A DNA stretch of 64,000 nt from Candidatus Zambryskibacteria bacterium RIFOXYC1_FULL_39_10. Its GTDB lineage: Bacteria; Patescibacteriota; Minisyncoccia; Phycocordibacterales; WO2-35-19. The notes under the pieces were generated by a model, which ran no database searches, had not been told where the DNA came from, and saw only the letters and a list, made by a program, of their open reading frames with translations. Location of the stretch: positions 13,266-77,265 of the forward strand of contig MHWW01000002.1 in the NCBI GenBank assembly GCA_001824275.1. Direction: 5' to 3'. The position numbers were made by a program, and so were the translations under genes. Positions 32,149 to 57,647 of this stretch are shown one piece after another; position 1 is the stretch's first letter; each line of letters opens with the position of its first letter.

Positions 32149-32257
32149 TAATATTTTTTAAAAATTACCCCTTCACTTCTACCCACGCATAATTTTCTGC
32201 TGAAAATTTGCGCGGGCCCACCTCAGCTCGCCAGCTTCCGGTTCGTAGAAGTGCGAT

Positions 32258-32677
32258 TCAACGCACTTCTACGCCCATGCTCCTACACTGACCGGCGATT
32301 ATTTTGACTGCTGCCTCTAAGTCATTGGCATTTAGGTCAACCATTTTGACTTGAGCGATTTCTTCCAATTGTTTGCGAGTAATGGTGCCAACTTTTTGAC
32401 TTGGGGTTTTACCCGCGCCTTTTTCAATACCGAGCGCCTTTTTGATAAGACTTGATGCTGGGGGGGTCTTCAAGACAAAATCAAAAGTGCGGTCTTCGTA
32501 GACATTGATTTCAGCTGGGACTAGACCTTCCATACCCCTAGTAGCTTCGTTAAATTTTGTGACGAATTCACCAATATTAATACCGGCTGGCCCCAAAGCG
32601 GTTCCAACAGGAGGAGCAGGAGTCGCCTTACCTGCCGCAATCACCAATTTTATTTTTTTTGTTATCTTTTTTGCCAT
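32258..32677 (-). CDS. rplK: 50S ribosomal protein L11.
   Basis: Starts [30 protein letters not shown]. No rplA follows it. Confidence 0.95.
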
Positions 32678-50581: not shown

Positions 50582-50845
50582 TTATTTTTTGTCGGTTTTA
50601 GTGATTTTTTCCAATTCCTCTTGCATTCTACTAAGTTCTGACTGATGCTGACTCATTTGTTGTCTGATGCGATCTACTTCTTGTTCTAATTTTGCCGCTT
50701 CACCTTCAGCTTTTTGAAGCTCTTGTTTTATTTTATCTGCCTCCGCCTTATGTTTATCAAGCTCTCGTTCTTTTTCTTGCAAATCGCGAGTTTCCTTTTC
50801 AATTTCTCTTTTTAAACTTTCCAATGCTTGTGTTGATGCACTCAT
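50582..50845 (-). CDS. Coiled-coil protein (88 aa).
   Basis: Heptad-rich, E/K/Q-rich sequence. The ORF-track N-terminal extension (MMVVIAQLAERF...) is the translation of the tRNA-His gene, so I trimmed the start to MSASTQ. Confidence 0.5.
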   Translation of the reverse strand: MSASTQALESLKREIEKETRDLQEKERELDKHKAEADKIKQELQKAEGEAAKLEQEVDRIRQQMSQHQSELSRMQEELEKITKTDKK

Positions 50846-50877
50846 AATAAATGGGTTATTTAATAAAATTTCAATTT

Positions 50878-50954
50878 TGGGGTGGCCAGCGGGTTCTGCC
50901 CCCGCGACCTCTTCTTTCACAGAGAAGCGCTCTGCTAGCTGAGCTATGACCACC
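50878..50954 (-). tRNA. tRNA-His (anticodon GUG) with encoded G-1, discriminator C73 and an encoded CCA. D-loop and T-loop are non-canonical.
   Basis: Hand-folded from the minus strand: G(-1) GTGGTCA TA GCTC AGCTAGCA GAGC G CTTCT CTGTGAA AGAAG AGGTC GCGGG GGCAGAA CCCGC TGGCCAC C CCA, 77 nt. Acceptor, anticodon and T stems pair perfectly. A18 and G54/G55 replace the usual G18 and T54/T55. Confidence 0.65.
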
Positions 50955-51070
50955 ATCATAAAAAGTTTATAGCTGAGAGCCTGTCTGCCGACAAGGCAGG
51001 CTTAAAGCTTGAAAGCATTTTCGCATAAAATATCACTTTTTTCCAGCCTCCCAAGAATTTTTTTATTTTT

Positions 51071-51113
51071 CTCCCCTCTCCTGCATCTAGGAGAGGGGCT
51101 GGGGGTGAGGTTA
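51071..51113 (-). repeat. Copy d of the palindromic element. Its TTA is the stop codon of the PduO-type gene.
   Basis: Sequence CTCCCCTCTCCTGCATCTAGGAGAGGGGCTGGGGGTGAGGTTA. Confidence 0.8.
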
Positions 51114-51737
51114 CCTATAATCCGGCGATTCCTCCATAATACCAACCTTGTGATTAGAATATCGAGCCAAAGCGTAGAGAATACTTGAAAGGCGGTTCAA
51201 ATAAGCCATGGTATATTTACTAATTTGTTTTTTATTTTTACTTTCTTCCCCTGAAACAGGCAAAGCCGGTTGAGCGATGTCCTCAGAAACTGCAATCACT
51301 CGCCTCTCGGCACGTCTCGCAATAGTGCGAGCAATATCAAATATAGCTCCGAGCCCCGCCCCTGACTGTTGCCACTTAGTCACATCGGCAGGACCACCAG
51401 AAACAAAGAAAGACTTGATTGGTGGTAATTCTTTTTCAATTCCATCAATTATTTCTTCCAATTCTTTTACCTTTTTTTCATCGATACTTTTTTCTGCTCC
51501 CGCGAGTTCCGCTTGAACAATAAAAAGATTTTTTTGTATTTCGTGCACAATTTCCGCTAAGCTAGAATCGCCCAATTTAAAATCAAGGAATGCGGCCTGC
51601 ACTTTACAAAGACCTAGAAATGAATTTATTTCATCCAAACTGCCCAAAGCCTCAGTGATATTTGAACTTTTGGAAATTCTTTGGTCACAACCGAATGTCT
51701 TGGTTGTTCCATCATCCCCTTTTTTAGTGTAAAGCAT
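51111..51737 (-). CDS. ATP:cob(I)alamin adenosyltransferase, PduO type.
   Basis: MLYTKKGDDGTTKTFGCDQRISKSSNITEALGSLDEINSFLGL matches the PduO N-terminal family. Confidence 0.75.
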   Translation of the reverse strand: MLYTKKGDDGTTKTFGCDQRISKSSNITEALGSLDEINSFLGLCKVQAAFLDFKLGDSSLAEIVHEIQKNLFIVQAELAGAEKSIDEKKVKELEEIIDGIEKELPPIKSFFVSGGPADVTKWQQSGAGLGAIFDIARTIARRAERRVIAVSEDIAQPALPVSGEESKNKKQISKYTMAYLNRLSSILYALARYSNHKVGIMEESPDYR

Positions 51738-51818: not shown

Positions 51819-52061
51819 TTAAACTTTCTCAACAACTGTTCCCTCTTTCACTTTCTGCTCTGTCTTCATGCCAATGACATCGCCAGAACCAGCTGTTTCG
51901 ACTTGCTTGTGATTTACTTGAAGCGAATCAACTTCTTGTTCAAAATCAGCGCCATGACCCTCAAATTTGACCTTATCGCCGACTTTTAAATTTGCCTCAA
52001 GTTCCACAATAGCAACTCCTAAATGGTCGTAATAATGTGTAACTCTTCCGACCTCTTTCAT
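51819..52061 (-). CDS. Small hypothetical protein with its own extended -10 promoter (TGGTATAAT at 52071-52079, minus strand).
   Basis: 80-aa ORF. Confidence 0.45.
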   Translation of the reverse strand: MKEVGRVTHYYDHLGVAIVELEANLKVGDKVKFEGHGADFEQEVDSLQVNHKQVETAGSGDVIGMKTEQKVKEGTVVEKV

Positions 52062-52248: not shown

Positions 52249-52716
52249 TTATGCAAAACTCTTGAGTCGGCGTTCAACTTCAAGAATCTGATTTTGGATG
52301 GGAAACAAACAAGCATCAATCAGCCTCCTGTTGACCATCATGCCGGCCTTAGCGAAAGCACCAATCATCTTGTCAACACAGTCGAAAACTTTACCGTTGT
52401 ACGTCAACATCACAGAACTTTCTACTTCCCAAGCTCGAGACCTCGAAATGACTACCTTCGCAAATGTCGCATCCCCGCCGTGGAGCCAATCAAAGTCTCT
52501 TGCATGCACATGGTAATCGATTTGTTCGACACTTACATCATGGTCAATTGTTCGAATTGAAAATGGCGCTACCATTTTCTCCACTGCCTGCAGAGGTGGG
52601 GCTGGTTTAGGTTTTGCCACAACAACTTCCATGGCAGATTTTCCCTGTAAAACAGGCTCAACCTGTATTTCGACTCTTGGCATTTCATACCAAACCACTA
52701 AATCTTCCATGCTCAT
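52249..52716 (-). CDS. Hypothetical protein. GC-shifted gene beside a tRNA-Leu 3' duplication.
   Basis: 155-aa ORF. Canonical promoter: -35 TTGTAA (52759-52764), 16-nt spacer, -10 TATAAT (52737-52742), with SD GGAAGGGAG 7 nt before the ATG. Confidence 0.55.
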   Translation of the reverse strand: MSMEDLVVWYEMPRVEIQVEPVLQGKSAMEVVVAKPKPAPPLQAVEKMVAPFSIRTIDHDVSVEQIDYHVHARDFDWLHGGDATFAKVVISRSRAWEVESSVMLTYNGKVFDCVDKMIGAFAKAGMMVNRRLIDACLFPIQNQILEVERRLKSFA

Positions 52717-52779
52717 AAGAACTCCCTTCCAAATATATTATAGCATTTATATGTAAAATTACAAGTATTTATTCTAAAA

Positions 52780-52799
52780 TGTGCCCAGGAGAGGACTCG
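52780..52799 (-). repeat. 20-nt direct duplicate of the tRNA-Leu 3' end (T-arm 3' half plus acceptor 3' strand). att-like scar.
   Basis: TGTGCCCAGGAGAGGACTCG is identical to 52944-52963. Confidence 0.7.
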
Positions 52800-52905
52800 G
52801 TCACAGATAATTTTGTTTTCGTCAAAACAAAATTTCCGCGACCCCGACTCGCGGCCTCGCGTGCTCGCTCGGCATTCGCTCCGTCTTTCTCGTCCTCCAG
52901 TAGCA

Positions 52906-52942
52906 ATTAAAAAAGACTGGAAAAAATCCAGTCTTTTTTAAT
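52906..52942 (-). terminator. Terminator immediately 3' of tRNA-Leu.
   Basis: AAAAAAGACTGGA-AAAAAT-TCCAGTCTTTTTT. Confidence 0.7.
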
Positions 52943-52944
52943 TG

Positions 52945-53026
52945 TGCCCAGGAGAGGACTCGAACCTCCACGCCTTGCGGCTTACCCACCTCAAGGGTAA
53001 ATGTCTACCAATTTCAACACCTGGGC
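52945..53026 (-). tRNA. tRNA-Leu (anticodon GAG), type II with a long variable arm.
   Basis: Hand-folded: GCCCAGG TG TTG AAATTGGTAGA CAT T TACCC TTGAGGT GGGTA AGCCGCAAGGCGT GGAGG TTCGAGT CCTCT CCTGGGC A. Canonical TTCGAGT T-loop. Confidence 0.8.
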
Positions 53027-53066: not shown

Positions 53067-53132
53067 CCTCCCCTCACCTTCGCAAGGTGAGGGGCAACTT
53101 TCCGTAAGGAAAGTGGGGTGGGGTCGTTTTTA
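53067..53132 (-). repeat. Copy f (divergent, double-hairpin) of the palindromic element family, abutting the rplS stop codon.
   Basis: Contains CCCCTCACCTT-CG-CAAGGTGAGGGG and ACTTTCC-GTAA-GGAAAGT, followed by GGGGTGGGGTCGTTTTTA. Confidence 0.6.
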
Positions 53133-53594
53133 TTCTTTAACTTCTTCAGCCTCCGCCACCTTTTCAGCATTTTCTACAATTTTTTCTTCTACTGCCTCCA
53201 CTTCTTCAATAGTGACGACTTCGGGGAGGGCTTGAGTATTTCTCATTTGTCTTCTAATTTCTTTAGCGGCTTTTTTGCGGATGTGATAGAGTTTGGCGCG
53301 ACGCACTTTGGAGCGCTTGGTCACTTCAATCTTTTCAATCATTGGGGAATATATAGGGAAAATCCTCTCTACTCCAACTCCTGATGCTACTTTTCTCAGT
53401 GTGATAGTGCCACCCACTTCTTTGCCGTGTTTAACCGCCAAACATAGTCCTTCAAAATCCTGTAATCGAGTTTTTGGTTTACCAGTTTTTTTATCCTTCT
53501 CAACAATTTTTTGAGTGACACGAACAGTATCACCAGACTTAACATCTAGCCTCTTTCTCTCTTCTATATTTACTGTTGAAATTTTAATATTCAT
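53130..53594 (-). CDS. rplS: 50S ribosomal protein L19 (with an acidic C-terminal extension).
   Basis: Contains GDTVRVTQKIVE...LQDFEGLCLAVKHGK...TLRKVASGVGVERIFPIYSPMIEKIEVTKRSKVRRAKLYH, matching bL19. Confidence 0.85.
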   Translation of the reverse strand: MNIKISTVNIEERKRLDVKSGDTVRVTQKIVEKDKKTGKPKTRLQDFEGLCLAVKHGKEVGGTITLRKVASGVGVERIFPIYSPMIEKIEVTKRSKVRRAKLYHIRKKAAKEIRRQMRNTQALPEVVTIEEVEAVEEKIVENAEKVAEAEEVKE

Positions 53595-53599
53595 ATGAT

Positions 53600-54448
53600 T
53601 TATCTCTTCTTACCCACCTTTCTTCTGCTAACAATAAACTTGTTTGAATACTTTTTGGATCGGCGAGATTTCTGACCCTTGCCAGTTGGTTTGCCCCATA
53701 GGGAAATCGCTCTTCGACGACCTCTACCTTGTCTACCCTCACCTCCACCGTGTGGATGATCAACTGGGTTCATAGCTGTACCACGAACAGTTGGGCGAAT
53801 GCCTTTCCAACGGCTTTTGCCCGCTTTACCATAATTTTCAAGTCTTTTTTCTTCATTTGAAACTTCTCCAATACTTGCCCAGCAAGTTTCTTTAACTTTA
53901 CGTATTTCAGTAGAAGGCATTTTTAAATCAACAGAGCCAGCGTCTTTAGCAATCACCTGGACGAAGTTTCCAGCCGAACGAGCAATCCTTGCTCCGCCTT
54001 TTGGCTTGAGTTCAACATTGTAAACCGAAGCACCAACGGGGATTTCTCGAAGAGGCAACCGGTTACCTTGTTTTATTTCTGCATTTTCTGCGGTCACTAA
54101 TTCTTCGCCAACTTTGACACTTTTTGGCAAAAGAACATATCTTTTTTCACCATCTTTATAAACTGCTTGACCAATAAAACCAGTGCGGTTTGGATCGTAT
54201 TCAACCGAAACAATTTTATAAGGAATATTTATTTTATTGTATTTAAAATCTATCTCTCTGTATAACCTCTTGTGGCCTCCACCTTTGTGGCGGACAGTGA
54301 TCCGGCCAGCGCTGTTTCTACCCACCGCCCTTTTTCTACCAAAAGTAAGAGCTTTCAACGGTTTGTTTTTGGTCAAAATTGATTTCAAAGAGACGACTGT
54401 CATGCCTCTTCTTGATTTTGATGTTGGTTTGTAAGTTTTGATTGCCAT
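53600..54448 (-). CDS. rplB: 50S ribosomal protein L2.
   Basis: 282 aa, uL2-like. Confidence 0.95.
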   Translation of the reverse strand: MAIKTYKPTSKSRRGMTVVSLKSILTKNKPLKALTFGRKRAVGRNSAGRITVRHKGGGHKRLYREIDFKYNKINIPYKIVSVEYDPNRTGFIGQAVYKDGEKRYVLLPKSVKVGEELVTAENAEIKQGNRLPLREIPVGASVYNVELKPKGGARIARSAGNFVQVIAKDAGSVDLKMPSTEIRKVKETCWASIGEVSNEEKRLENYGKAGKSRWKGIRPTVRGTAMNPVDHPHGGGEGRQGRGRRRAISLWGKPTGKGQKSRRSKKYSNKFIVSRRKVGKKR

Positions 54449-54452
54449 AATA

Positions 54453-54740
54453 TTATTCTATCTTATCTCCCTTTTTTAAATAAACATACGCCTTTTTCAC
54501 TCCCGCCTTCACTCCCTTTTTGCCACGCAAAAATACTTTTTTGGCTGGGTTTCTGACGATTCTGATTTTGATTGGGTTTATTTTATAAAAAATTTTGATT
54601 GCTCCTGCAACTTGCAATTTAGTCGCCGATGAGGCGACCTCAAAAGTATAAACATTATTTTCCAATACCAACGAAGCCTTTTCGGTGATTCTAGGCCTTA
54701 TCAAAATGTCGGCGTATTTTGCTTTTAAATCAGTTACCAT
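54453..54740 (-). CDS. rplW: 50S ribosomal protein L23.
   Basis: 95 aa, uL23-like. Confidence 0.85.
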   Translation of the reverse strand: MVTDLKAKYADILIRPRITEKASLVLENNVYTFEVASSATKLQVAGAIKIFYKINPIKIRIVRNPAKKVFLRGKKGVKAGVKKAYVYLKKGDKIE

Positions 54741-54780
54741 GTTAGTTAATTGAAAAATTAAATGATTGAAAATTGAAAGA

Positions 54781-55440
54781 TTATTTTAGTCGGGATAATA
54801 AAGTTGGAATCGATTTATCAGGATTAGCTACTATTAAATATTTATATTGCAAAATATCAAGCACATTCAAATCTTTTATCTGCCCCACTTCCAAATTGCC
54901 GAAATTATTAAAACTTTTTGAAACCGCTTCGTCTTTACCTTGCAAGGCGATGAATGCCGCATTTTTCCTTCTCGCAAGTGAGCTAATCTCTTTTATTTTT
55001 GAAAGTGCGGAAATGATGCTTTTTGCGTCTTTTGTTTTTGGTGCCCGAAGTGAAATATCATCCAAAAATACGACTTCCCCATCTTTAAATTTGCTTGAGA
55101 TAACAGTAAAGAGCGCTTTGGTCTTCATCTTTTTATTTATTTTTCTAGAATAGTCTTTGTCGTTTCTTGGACCATGTGTGATACCACCACCTACCCAGAT
55201 TGGGCTGCGTCTAGAGCCGTGTCTTGCTCGGCCAGTGCCTTTTTGTCTCCAAGGCTTCATACCGGTACCGGCAACCTCGCCTCTGTTTTTGGTGTGAGCG
55301 ATCGGGGTCCTTTCGTTAGCCGCCATAGATGTTGCCACCTGATGCACCAATGATTCATTCCAAGGCAAACCAAAAATATTCTCTGGAAGTTTTATTTTCC
55401 CCGCTTCGGTTCCTTTTTGATTGTAAACTGTTGCTTCCAT
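54781..55440 (-). CDS. rplD: 50S ribosomal protein L4.
   Basis: 219 aa, uL4-like. Confidence 0.9.
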   Translation of the reverse strand: MEATVYNQKGTEAGKIKLPENIFGLPWNESLVHQVATSMAANERTPIAHTKNRGEVAGTGMKPWRQKGTGRARHGSRRSPIWVGGGITHGPRNDKDYSRKINKKMKTKALFTVISSKFKDGEVVFLDDISLRAPKTKDAKSIISALSKIKEISSLARRKNAAFIALQGKDEAVSKSFNNFGNLEVGQIKDLNVLDILQYKYLIVANPDKSIPTLLSRLK

Positions 55441-55480
55441 TTTTTTAATTTATAAATTTAGGTTAATTAGAATAATTAGG

Positions 55481-56098
55481 TTAATTTCCCCTAATTTCTA
55501 CAAGCGTTCCTCTTCGTCCAGGCACTGCGCCCGAAACCAGCATTATATTGTTTTCTTGATCAATGCCAATCACTTTAAGGTTTTTGACGGTGATTCTATC
55601 ACTTCCTGTTCGGCCGGCCATTCTCATACCTTTGATAACCTTGCCTCCAGCACGACCACCACCACCGATAGATCCCGGTTCCCTTTCTGAATGCTTCTGT
55701 CCGTGGCTCCTTGGTCCTCCATGGAAACCATGCCTTTTGACTACTCCCTGAAAACCTTTACCTTTTGAAATAGCGGAAACATTTATGCTATCTCCAACCG
55801 CAAAGGACTCCAATGAAATCTTATCTCCTTTATTAAAAACAGAACTATCAGTCACTCTAAATTCTTTCAAAACTGCTAAATTGCCGAGCTCTTTAAGGTG
55901 ACCTTTGACCGGTTTTGACATGTTTTTTTCTCGGCGGGTGCCAGCTCCTATTTGCACCGCAGTATAACCATCCTTCTCCTTGGTCTTTATTTGAGAAATG
56001 GTCACAGGTTGCGCACTCAAAATGGTGGCTGGTTGCACCTTGCCATCTTCCCCAAAGATTTGGGTCATATTCACTTTTTTAGCCAGTATAAATTTCAT
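55481..56098 (-). CDS. rplC: 50S ribosomal protein L3.
   Basis: 205 aa, uL3-like. Confidence 0.9.
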   Translation of the reverse strand: MKFILAKKVNMTQIFGEDGKVQPATILSAQPVTISQIKTKEKDGYTAVQIGAGTRREKNMSKPVKGHLKELGNLAVLKEFRVTDSSVFNKGDKISLESFAVGDSINVSAISKGKGFQGVVKRHGFHGGPRSHGQKHSEREPGSIGGGGRAGGKVIKGMRMAGRTGSDRITVKNLKVIGIDQENNIMLVSGAVPGRRGTLVEIRGN

Positions 56099-56179
56099 AT
56101 AAAAAACGCCATTCGGCTTTTAGTAAAATAACAAATATCACAATAAATTGCAAGTCAGCTGAGCAACTTAACCATATTT

Positions 56180-56410
56180 TTAAAGATTTTTGATAATAAT
56201 GTTATATTCTTCTGCTGTTATACCCAACAAACGAATATTGTTGTGAATTATGAAAAGTTCAAGTTGTTTTCTTCTAGGTAATACGATCGGGCGGGATATT
56301 CCCTGTTTCCAGTACACCCTATGATCACCTTTTTCTCGCACAAATTCACACCCCACATACAAAAGAAATTTTTCAAATTTCTTCCAATGTATGCGAGATA
56401 TTTTTGGCAT
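56180..56410 (-). CDS. hicA: HicA-family toxin (YcfA-like mRNA interferase).
   Basis: 76 aa: ...KKFEKFLLYVGCEFVREKGDHRVYWKQGISRPIVLP... matches the HicA pattern. Confidence 0.65.
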   Translation of the reverse strand: MPKISRIHWKKFEKFLLYVGCEFVREKGDHRVYWKQGISRPIVLPRRKQLELFIIHNNIRLLGITAEEYNIIIKNL

Positions 56411-56413
56411 AAT

Positions 56414-56731
56414 TTATACAGTTACAGGCAACATGCCGTGTGATACAAAAATTGGAGGCATCCATTGACTTGTTTTAGAAATTTTTTTCCAACCCAAAGA
56501 AGACAAGACCTCATCAACAGTGCCGTGTATTAATATTTCTTCCATAAAAATACTTACCGCCTCAGCAATATTTTTTTCAGCCTCTTTTAAGGTTTTACCA
56601 GCACTAGATAAATCTAAAGCAGGAGTATAAGCAACAAATGATTTGTCTTCTTTAAAATAACTTACTGGAACATTTATTTTCATACGAGCCTTCATAAACT
56701 CTAATATACCAAAATATGCCATAAACGACAA
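56414..56731 (-). CDS. hicB: HicB-family antitoxin (UPF0150-like).
   Basis: 105 aa; YFKEDKSFVAYTPALDLSSAGKTLKEAEKNIAEA is HicB-like. Lies 4 nt upstream of hicA. Confidence 0.6.
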   Translation of the reverse strand: MSFMAYFGILEFMKARMKINVPVSYFKEDKSFVAYTPALDLSSAGKTLKEAEKNIAEAVSIFMEEILIHGTVDEVLSSLGWKKISKTSQWMPPIFVSHGMLPVTV

Positions 56732-56800
56732 TCCCCAATCAAAATTGACGTTTTACCCTCCCCCGCTATAATAAAATCATTAACAAATAACTAAAATATT

Positions 56801-57151
56801 ATGGGAATGGAATCATCTGGCGTAGCGCCAAAACAAGAAGTTGACTTACAGGCCGACTTACAGGCCTTAAAAGACATGTTAGAAAAAAGAGGAATAGACC
56901 CAGAAAAAACCCTCGAAGCAATCAATGATTTCAAGGAAGCACAGCGAGGACTTAGTGATGCGATGGCACACTATAACGAGCAGGCGGCAAGACTAGCAGA
57001 AGCTAATGGCTACCCAATGACAGAAGAACAAGAAGCTAAGTTTCCAGCAATGAACATGAGAGTAGATAATGACCTAAGAACATATTTGAGACTCAAAGGT
57101 TCATCAGAACCAGAAAACAAAAACGAAGATCTGCCCGTCGAACTTTTATAA
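56801..57151 (+). CDS. Hypothetical protein. GC-shifted and the only plus-strand gene in this neighbourhood.
   Basis: 116-aa ORF. Confidence 0.45.
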   Translation: MGMESSGVAPKQEVDLQADLQALKDMLEKRGIDPEKTLEAINDFKEAQRGLSDAMAHYNEQAARLAEANGYPMTEEQEAKFPAMNMRVDNDLRTYLRLKGSSEPENKNEDLPVELL

Positions 57152-57211
57152 ACAATCAAAAAACCACCGAGAGGTGGTTTTTTGATTTATGTGCTTAGCG
57201 TGTGTTTCGCG

Positions 57212-57266
57212 CCTTCCCTCTCCTCAGTCGAGGAGAGGGCCACACGAAGTGAGGGGTGAGGTTTTA
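57212..57266 (-). repeat. Copy e (variant) of the palindromic element, abutting the rpsJ stop codon.
   Basis: Sequence CCTTCCCTCTCCTCAGTCGAGGAGAGGGCCACACGAAGTGAGGGGTGAGGTTTTA. The TTA at 57264-57266 is the rpsJ stop codon. Confidence 0.65.
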
Positions 57267-57641
57267 CATTATCTTCACATCAATATTCACACCTGATGGC
57301 AAAGAGAGATTGGTCAGAGCGTCCATTATTTTAGGAGAAGGGTTTATGATATCAATCACTCTCCTATGCACTCGCATCTCAAACTGCTCACGAGCGTTTT
57401 TGTATACGAATGGAGAGCGGTTGACAGTCCACTTCTTTATTTCAGTGGGCAGTGGTATTGGCCCAACTATTTTGGCATCATATCTCATAGCAGTATCAAT
57501 AATCTGCTTAACCGAAAGATCAAGCACTTTATACTCATAAGCCATCACTCTGATGCGCAACTTAGAAATAGGCTCTTCTTTTTTAGAAGATTTCTTAGGT
57601 TTTGCTACTTTTTTTTCTTTTTTTAATGTACTCTCAGCCAT
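57264..57641 (-). CDS. rpsJ: 30S ribosomal protein S10 (with a Lys-rich N-terminal extension).
   Basis: RIRVMAYEYKVLDLSVKQIIDTAMRYDAKIVGPIPLPT is uS10-like. Confidence 0.9.
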   Translation of the reverse strand: MAESTLKKEKKVAKPKKSSKKEEPISKLRIRVMAYEYKVLDLSVKQIIDTAMRYDAKIVGPIPLPTEIKKWTVNRSPFVYKNAREQFEMRVHRRVIDIINPSPKIMDALTNLSLPSGVNIDVKIM

Positions 57642-57647
57642 TTTATC

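Follow-up and report, generated by a model that had tools for sequence, protein, structure and literature searches.

A family of protein-free structured insertions at the 3' ends of tRNA and protein genes in Patescibacteria

The 64-kb stretch of a Candidatus Zambryskibacteria (Patescibacteria) genome from Rifle groundwater that is the subject here (the window) contains a tRNA-Leu(GAG) gene whose 3' end is repeated a short distance downstream. The 143 nt between the two copies are an intact, non-coding and protein-free member of a family of structured insertions that apparently has not been described so far, and a second member occupies the last codons of rplK elsewhere in the window. The comparisons presented below show that these elements spread laterally and regenerate the ends of genes. 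We favor, with a probability of about 0.6, the reading that they constitute a family of mobile insertions, each with an arm matched to its target, which rebuild gene 3' ends.

The element at tRNA-Leu and its family

Two exact copies of the 20-mer TGTGCCCAGGAGAGGACTCG are present in the window, one at 52780-52799 and the other at 52943-52962. The duplication had been noticed in an earlier reading of the locus from its letters alone (the sequence-only reading), and it is indeed exact, but the proximal copy had been placed at 52944-52963 and the interval between the copies given as 145 nt, while the interval is 143 nt (52800-52942, minus strand). A third match at up to three mismatches is absent from the 64-kb window, and none of 100 shuffled sequences gave two matches. 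The repeat covers the tRNA from C56 of the T-loop through the discriminator and 2 nt beyond it; CCA is not encoded, the gene ending in ...CCUGGGC-A with CA after it. The only open reading frames (ORFs) in the 143 nt are chance frames of 42-55 codons, none of them conserved as a gene. The parts of the locus, read along the minus strand, are the following, with DR1 and DR2 for the proximal and distal direct repeats and IR for the inverted, antisense arm:

52944-53026 (ARAGORN) or 52945-53026 (Rfam RF00005, 42.7 bits), minus: tRNA-Leu(GAG), the target gene
52943-52962, minus: DR1, the functional tRNA 3' end (C56 to the discriminator, plus CA), repeat family D12
52909-52939, minus: terminator-like hairpin AAAAAAGACTGG-ATTTTTT-CCAGTCTTTTTT (as RNA, AAAAAAGACUGG-AUUUUUU-CCAGUCUUUUUU), the first part of the insertion
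52889-52900, minus: IR, antisense arm CUGGAGGACGAG, the 5' strand of helix P1
52886-52888, minus: junction J1/2, AAA, columns 12-14 of alignment A2
52883-52885 and 52846-52848, minus: helix P2, GAC pairing with GUC, within 52846-52885
52880-52882 and 52849-52850, minus: internal loop, GGA opposite GA
52851-52879, minus: P3, variable hairpin
52843-52845, minus: junction J2/4, GGG
52800-52842, minus: P4, long hairpin GUCGCGGAAAU...AUUAUCUGUGAC, which includes a G.U pair and a bulged A and whose upper stem covaries
52780-52799, minus: DR2, the distal 20-mer, the 3' strand of P1
52788-52899, minus: match of covariance model R1 from IR through nucleotide 12 of DR2 (102.9 bits, E about 1e-26; a seed member)

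The arm is complementary, with a tandem G.A, to CGAGUCCUCU.. of the tRNA-Leu 3' end and of DR2. Both hairpins that had been described between the repeats are present: one is the terminator-like hairpin at 52909-52939, which a simple terminator scan did not flag, and the other, TTTTGTTTTG-ACG-AAAACAAAA, is the upper part of P4. The core ends ...GUGAC, and the last base of P4 abuts DR2 with zero spacer. When isolated, 135 nt of the element fold into a three-way junction of IR, P2, P3, P4 and DR2 with a free energy of -54.7 kcal/mol (z = -4.6). All 15 strain contigs of the organism carry the element.

The family was assembled by scanning tRNAs in related loci for repeats of their own sequence. 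Second copies of 16-25 nt from the tRNA 3' end were found 110-210 nt downstream of His, Leu(GAG), Leu(CAG), Arg, Val and Ser genes in many species, and the sequences enclosed by these repeats have conserved motifs in common. The search pattern GGGGTCGCGGRAAT-N(6-36)-ATTATCYGTGAC matched at least 120 metagenome stretches and gave no match in viral contigs; together with the related loci and the window, the pattern matches make up 132 instances. A same-strand tRNA gene ends at most 320 nt upstream in 81 of the 132, with 31 tRNA/anticodon types represented, and the sequence that follows GUGAC restarts at T-loop C56 in 39 of these 81 cases and within the last few tRNA nucleotides or the trailer in a further 19. 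Other targets are transfer-messenger RNA (tmRNA), the codons of the C-terminal zinc ribbon of topA (five loci) and further protein-gene ends. The elements always lie on the strand of the upstream gene, just 3' of it. When applied to GTDB loci that had not been selected by the pattern, covariance model R1 found 18 further copies, each just 3' of a tRNA, and the two copies in the window. About 20 type-A and 5 type-B copies are present in 54 loci of roughly 12 kb, and among the tRNA genes of the sampled loci roughly one in eight has an element. The size of the elements ranges from 85 to 340 nt, that of the repeat from 5 to 87 nt and that of the arm from 8 to 22 nt, and tandem arrays of two or three units exist.

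A cmscan search of Rfam 15 gave nothing over the element in the window at E <=1, and in 14 loci and locus L069 it returned only tRNA, tmRNA and noise at E <=5. A literature search that included the literal core sequence retrieved only unrelated papers, such as those on group I introns at position 35/36 of Patescibacteria tRNAs, and in a BLAST search of phage and plasmid records only the A/T hairpin, not the core, was matched.

On the sense strand, the common architecture of the family is DR1, a hairpin or loop, IR, the core (junction AAA or CGA, P2, tandem-GA loop, P3, junction GGG, and P4 ending in GUGAC) and DR2. The hairpin or loop after DR1 often provides a terminator or, in protein genes, the stop codon, and IR and DR2 pair with each other as P1. 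In an alignment of 38 sequences, the seed from which R1 was built, RNAalifold finds compensatory change in 18 of 30 pairs. Once P1 is added to the seed alignment, 92% of cells are paired, compared with 31-44% when the partners are slid against each other, and the covariation score is 0.507, compared with at most 0.119; none of 500 shuffles reaches 0.507. The middle pair of P2 is CG in 15 sequences, AU in 12, GC in 10 and UA in one, without exception, and the first pair of P1 forms in 38 of 38. In the set that was not chosen by the pattern, 91% of cells are paired (36-45% with slid partners), 35 of the 38 pairs, the lower P4 stem included, show compensatory change, and the G.U pair of P4 is kept in 18 of 20 matches. 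The unpaired nucleotides of GGG, the GA/GA loop and the bulged A are nearly invariant. Since P4 and P1 abut without a spacer, the core and the repeat meet on the continuous strand of a coaxial stack, and the nearly invariant G.U pair of P4 together with the constant orientation shows that it is the sense strand only, as RNA or as one DNA strand, that folds.

Several variations on this layout were seen. A second core type has the same succession of arm, core and repeat, with the consensus YUGAGUAUAU...AUACGAAAGGUGUAC, in which a loop-E-like AGUA/GAA motif is included, and with a short hairpin whose loop is UGUAA. Five more tRNAs in related loci are occupied by this type (L023:6685-6840, L024:9427-9592, L041:6650-6800, L055:5075-5185 and L069:7403-7580), namely Leu(GAG) (including loci L023 and L041), Leu(CAG) and His. 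It too is without a match among Rfam 15 families, and a hammerhead assignment for it was rejected, since its CUGAGUA lacks G8/A9. In a sub-family (L114, L124, L125, L207 and the second copy in L122), the arm that precedes P2 is a closed hairpin with the conserved loop GAAUACUUGGA, and some of its copies split the tRNA in the D-loop and have an intact tRNA copy just downstream. In locus L104 (3076-4100), a 183-codon gene lies between two nearly identical copies, each with a repeat of the tRNA-Ser 3' end and an identical 45-nt flank behind it, an arrangement which suggests that a pair of elements can capture a segment the size of a gene.

Occupied and empty sites and the proposed displacement of gene ends

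The site after tRNA-Leu was compared in 80 loci around L19, one genome per species. The Patescibacteria in this sample share the order L19, tRNA-Leu(GAG), a variable spacer of 33 nt to 3.8 kb, and tRNA-His, and the tRNA-Leu(GAG) site is filled in about 8 of roughly 50 species, by different cores. In the window the spacer also holds two ORFs, orf155 and orf80, and cobA, a gene for cobalamin adenosyltransferase. The empty site that the sequence-only reading had proposed to look for exists in the closest relative (L016; L19 91% and L2 95% identical), where both the repeat and orf155 are absent and the tRNA is followed, after 26 nt, by orf80, then by cobA and tRNA-His. Because orf80 stands directly 3' of tRNA-Leu in this genome and also in L025, L032 and L037, it and cobA are core genes, not cargo. 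Another relative (L017; L19 90% identical) has a homologous element at the same site, with an identical hairpin. Between it and the window, identity is 100% along about 45 nt of tRNA end and hairpin and about 85-93% in the remainder of the element, whereas the tRNA bodies are only about 80% identical. The same duplication in the relatives, which had been named as a sign of an ancient, fixed feature, is thus found in one of these two genomes and missing from the other.

Which of the two gene ends is the displaced one was judged from the copies in protein genes. The second copy in the window lies in rplK (ribosomal protein L11, by Pfam) and is composed as follows:

32170-32272, minus: the whole copy, in the last codons of rplK; covariance model R1 matches 32170-32256 (52.9 bits, E about 1e-12; not in the seed)
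32264-32272, minus: DR1, GTAGAAGTG
32258-32260, minus: stop codon of the new rplK end, CGT TGA
32245-32255, minus: IR, CGCACTTCTAC
to about 32183, minus: core
32174-32182: DR2, GTAGAAGTG, followed at 32165-32173 by AAGGGGTAA, the displaced native end VEVKG*

In its present form the gene closes with ...GTA GAA GTG CGT TGA (VEVR*), the arm CGCACTTCTAC pairs with this end, and the stop codon is in the loop; the lower P4 stem has undergone a compensatory change to CCCGCGC/GCGUGGG. After the core comes GTAGAAGTG AAG GGG TAA and then a terminator, and this copy, being upstream of the terminator, must therefore be transcribed. The relic after the core encodes VEVKG, which is the commonest C-terminus among 120 close L11 homologues (46 cases), while VEVR, the present end in the window, occurs in 22. 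In two related loci whose rplK encodes VEVKG or VEVKN (L223 and L224), the element is absent and rplK runs straight into the terminator, and in two whose rplK encodes VEVR or VEVK (L221 and L222), the element is present and a relic of the native end follows the core. In L222, synonymous differences set the relic apart from the in-gene copy, and it is the in-gene copy that the arm fits.

In topA, the insertion is at the same zinc-ribbon position in L107, L119, L174, L193 and L211, and the last 20 or so codons are repeated downstream. The two copies in L107 differ by 12 synonymous and 4 non-synonymous codon changes with the reading frame kept. As these differences are mostly synonymous, the copies are diverged orthologues and not the product of a duplication at insertion. 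In L193, the downstream copy has gained a stop codon. At the tRNA and tmRNA sites where the two copies differ, the arm usually fits the functional, upstream DR1. From rplK, topA and these arm matches, we infer that DR1, loop, arm and core travel together and that DR2 is the native end in a displaced position. Carried over from rplK and topA, this reading would make DR2 at tRNA-Leu the original tRNA 3' end, likewise displaced.

Mobility, mechanism and alternatives

Nearly identical cores are found at unrelated targets. In 22 pairs, the cores are 93-100% identical at different targets and the identity of arm and repeat is at chance level, and therefore arm and repeat are exchangeable modules on a constant scaffold. 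When the ORFs within 2.5 kb of more than 100 elements were clustered in search of a partner enzyme, no recurrent recombinase or transposase emerged, and the families that do recur there are all housekeeping ones (TopA, RelA/SpoT, SmpB, IF-2, L19 and ParB).

In the mechanism that we propose, the moving unit would consist of DR1, the loop, IR and the core. It would enter a gene at the 5' boundary of a short segment with homology to the DR1 that the element carries, so that the gene would keep a working 3' end while the native end would be pushed downstream as DR2, where it would decay. The arm would be the source of target specificity, and the conserved core may act as a recognition or catalytic scaffold for a joining activity at the boundary of P4 and P1. 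This activity would not be encoded beside the element and could be a recombinase or HUH-type enzyme acting in trans, or self-catalysis by the folded nucleic acid. Later spread among related genomes would proceed via flanking homology. It is possible, although we put this forward tentatively, that the elements represent a new mechanistic class, in which a protein-free three-way junction of about 100-190 nt, made of RNA or single-stranded DNA and equipped with an exchangeable arm, directs or catalyzes its own insertion at a helix junction and re-templates arm and repeat for each target, perhaps as a new class of ribozyme.

Several points weigh against mobility by such a mechanism. No enzyme, no excised form and no polymorphism of empty and filled sites within one population were seen, all 15 strain contigs being filled. 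Nor does the mechanism account for the re-matching of arms and repeats to more than 30 targets on cores that stay nearly identical. The conserved block shared by the window and L017 begins only at the last 5 or so nucleotides of the tRNA, and DR1 differs, which fits a DR1 borne by the element only if the left crossover varies. The figure of 59 of 70 in the comparison of arm and DR1 is inflated by the longer DR1 window. In the metagenome and seed set, the search pattern itself prescribed the lower P4 stem, whose invariance there is therefore partly a matter of ascertainment. The mismatches in P1 show no wobble enrichment (G.U 61, A.C 58) and are uninformative. Finally, a strong hairpin of the terminator type stands between tRNA-Leu and the core in the window, and this copy may therefore be poorly co-transcribed; the active form may be either RNA or single-stranded DNA.

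The alternative that survives best, which we nevertheless regard as unlikely, is that the elements are cis-acting RNAs beneficial to the host, co-transcribed with the gene and controlling its processing, stability or termination, for instance by an arm that switches between the gene end and DR2, with copies made by ordinary recombination. The constant location on the gene's strand at transcript 3' ends would be expected of such RNAs, as would the obligatory transcription of the rplK copy, and complementarity between arm and gene is retained while DR2 decays. Motifs of the RNA type are present (the k-turn-like tandem GA, the loop-E-like AGUA/GAA of the second core type and the invariant G.U), and the elements are frequent in streamlined genomes, as the counts of type-A and type-B copies given above indicate. 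However, they are sporadic at orthologous sites and have clean empty alleles, the element is better conserved between two species than the host tRNA, tandem arrays occur, and the C-termini of proteins have been rewritten with relics left behind (rplK and topA). In addition, the arm would compete with folding of the tRNA, and in the tRNA-Leu copy of the window a terminator-like hairpin precedes the core.

A variant of the mobile-insertion model, which appears quite improbable to us, holds that the junction itself cleaves and ligates, as RNA or as a DNA analogue, between GUGAC and the nucleotide that follows it (GUGAC/N), in the manner of a viroid- or retrozyme-like RNA or by arm-targeted reverse splicing. 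The joining point is located exactly at the P4/P1 stack, on the continuous strand and with zero spacer; the few nearly invariant unpaired nucleotides (GGG, the GA/GA loop and the bulged A) also speak for it, the arm forms a substrate helix like an internal guide sequence, and no protein is encoded nearby. Against this stand the lack of a match to any self-cleaving ribozyme or intron family of Rfam 15 at E <=5 and the fit of the DR2 relics of protein genes to DNA recombination. An RNA event would, moreover, have to be fixed in DNA by reverse transcription, of which nothing was seen nearby.

An explanation built on the sequence-only reading, a decayed scar left by a phage or integrative element that entered at tRNA-Leu by means of a tyrosine integrase since lost, with orf155 and orf80 as leftover cargo, is very hard to sustain. 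A direct repeat of a tRNA 3' end is the classical attL/attR signature, orf155, which has a strong promoter-like site to itself, is missing from the closest relative, and the repeat is indeed the footprint of an insertion at a tRNA gene. The inserted segment, however, is not a remnant. It lacks an ORF and represents, in intact form, a conserved structured family whose members occur at protein genes as well as at 31 tRNA types. Both orf155 and orf80 lie outside the repeats, and the suspicion of foreign cargo is justified only in so far as orf155 is lineage-specific, orf80 and the adenosyltransferase gene belonging to the syntenic core. There is no integrase within 10 kb on either side of the locus in the precomputed Pfam table, as had been noted, and this too speaks against the scar. 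The proposed search of the two proteins against phage and defense families returned no PHROGs or PADLOC match, and the viral-contig, phage and plasmid searches yielded nothing apart from the A/T hairpin.

Other candidates were rejected. Mimicry of tRNA by a tRNA-like minihelix fails as a general explanation at the cases with short repeats and at protein genes. A target-site duplication is incompatible with the topA and rplK copies, which are diverged orthologues. The template and variable repeats of a diversity-generating retroelement were dismissed because the differences are not adenine-specific, and a retron non-coding RNA because what follows the elements is orf155, housekeeping genes or terminators and not a reverse transcriptase. 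Miniature inverted-repeat transposable elements (MITEs) do not account for a repeat whose length is not fixed (5-87 nt), for an inverted arm that is target-specific or for the diverged orthologues at topA and rplK.

To return to mobile insertions with a target-matched arm, their likeness to known systems is partial in each case. The insertion logic, in which a gene 3' end is entered and replaced, is that of integrase-type islands; the integrase and the internal cargo are absent. Temperate phages, integrative and conjugative elements and islands with tyrosine integrases that use tRNA or tmRNA genes likewise insert into the 3' part, rebuild the end from a copy that the element carries and leave the displaced end as a direct repeat, and they may also target the 3' ends of protein genes. 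The present elements differ from them in being only 85-340 nt long, in having neither an integrase nor any ORF, in their antisense arm and single-strand fold and in having more than 30 targets. The attC sites of integrons and the attP site of CTX-phi used by XerCD are also strand-specific folded sites with covarying arms and conserved bulges, they are also associated with gene or cassette 3' ends, and their catalyst is not part of the unit; these sites, however, are simple hairpins for IntI or XerCD with a fixed partner (attI or dif), whereas here a three-way junction is formed, one helix of which copies the target. An integron integrase context was not found at the elements.

The insertion sequences of the IS200/IS605 group and their palindrome-associated transposable elements (PATEs), as well as repetitive extragenic palindromes (REP) with their associated tyrosine transposases (RAYT), are similar in being small, hairpin-bearing and strand-specific; they are active as one DNA strand, their target or cleavage site is selected by pairing with a short guide within the element end, and their non-autonomous copies are mobilized in trans. 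The guide of IS200/IS605, however, is about 4 nt long, with no duplication or copy of the target, as opposed to the arm of 8-22 nt and the target copy of 5-87 nt seen here, and the clustering of neighboring ORFs gave no TnpA or RAYT-like family within 2.5 kb of the elements. Group II introns, with their pairing of exon- and intron-binding sites (EBS-IBS), and the bridge (seek) RNAs of IS110/IS1111 share with our elements a structured scaffold, exchangeable target-complementary segments and the occurrence of related elements at different sites, but they are larger, encode or adjoin a protein (a reverse transcriptase/maturase or a DEDD recombinase) and do not duplicate 20 nt of the target. MITEs are likewise short, non-coding, multi-copy and sporadic, but theirs are the terminal inverted repeats of a parent insertion sequence and a duplication of fixed length, whereas here the inverted segment is derived from the target.

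Catalogued elements do not show the design found here, in which a conserved scaffold goes together, without any protein, with an arm matched to the target and a new end for the gene. These elements are carried by the tiny, streamlined genomes of Patescibacteria, where they have rewritten the last codons of ribosomal protein L11 and of topoisomerase I. If the arm really guides insertion, the scaffold would amount to a compact insertion system that is programmable by nature, and it would open a new way of studying how the 3' ends of genes turn into hot spots of integration. If the elements are host RNAs instead, they would form a new, abundant class of structured RNAs tied to tRNA 3' ends. In practical terms, the elements give rise to pseudo-tRNA fragments, change annotated protein C-termini and account for variable tRNA flanks in genomes of the candidate phyla radiation (CPR).

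Neighboring genes and other observations

The order of genes on the minus strand is S10, a HicA/B-like pair, L3, L4, L23, L2, L19, tRNA-Leu(GAG), orf155, orf80, cobalamin adenosyltransferase and tRNA-His(GTG). The genes that follow the element are:

52249-52716, minus: orf155, which together with its promoter-like site (52737-52764) spans 52249-52764, outside the element
51819-52061, minus: orf80, with the extended -10 TGGTATAAT
51111-51737, minus: PduO-type cobalamin adenosyltransferase (cobA)
50881-50953, minus: tRNA-His(GTG)

The signals that had been described for the two ORFs are in place. The promoter of orf155 is TTGTAA-16-TATAAT with a TG extension and is accompanied by the Shine-Dalgarno sequence GGAAGGGAG, and orf80 has its extended -10. 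The G+C content of orf155 (0.43-0.47) is higher, as had been claimed, than that of the sequence just downstream (0.36-0.38), but the shift is a weak one because the adjoining ribosomal-protein genes are at 0.41-0.45. Pfam gave nothing useful for either ORF. Homologues of orf155 number 4 in a database clustered at 90% and 14 among 1.84 billion representatives, and their contexts are unrelated (NTP-transferase/rve, MazG and TrmB). It is a rare, lineage-specific accessory gene outside the segment bounded by the repeats, and it may represent a separate gain of an accessory gene within the same variable interval between tRNA-Leu and tRNA-His.

Further observations concern the rest of the window, which holds core genes, type IV pilus and competence-type genes among them. 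The tRNA-His(GTG) gene was found by Rfam and missed by ARAGORN, and its T-loop is GGCAGAA in place of the usual TTCRANT; a mechanically called ORF (50582-50959) overlaps this gene, and its N-terminus is therefore spurious. An ORF of 881 aa beside nusA (59879-62524, minus strand) is without a Pfam match, and none is on record for it in a public collection. The S10 operon (53130-58889, minus strand), which ends at tRNA-Leu, is unusual in that rplS (L19) follows rplB (L2) where rpsS (S19) would be expected, an arrangement that is the same in L016-L039, and the HicA/HicB-like pair (56180-56731) sits between S10 and L3. GC-rich hairpins of the type CCCCTCTCC...GGAGAGGGG are located downstream of genes at 51071-51097, 53072-53096 and 57213-57239. 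The one after rplS is kept in L016 with compensatory changes, and these hairpins are probably terminators or another small repeat family.

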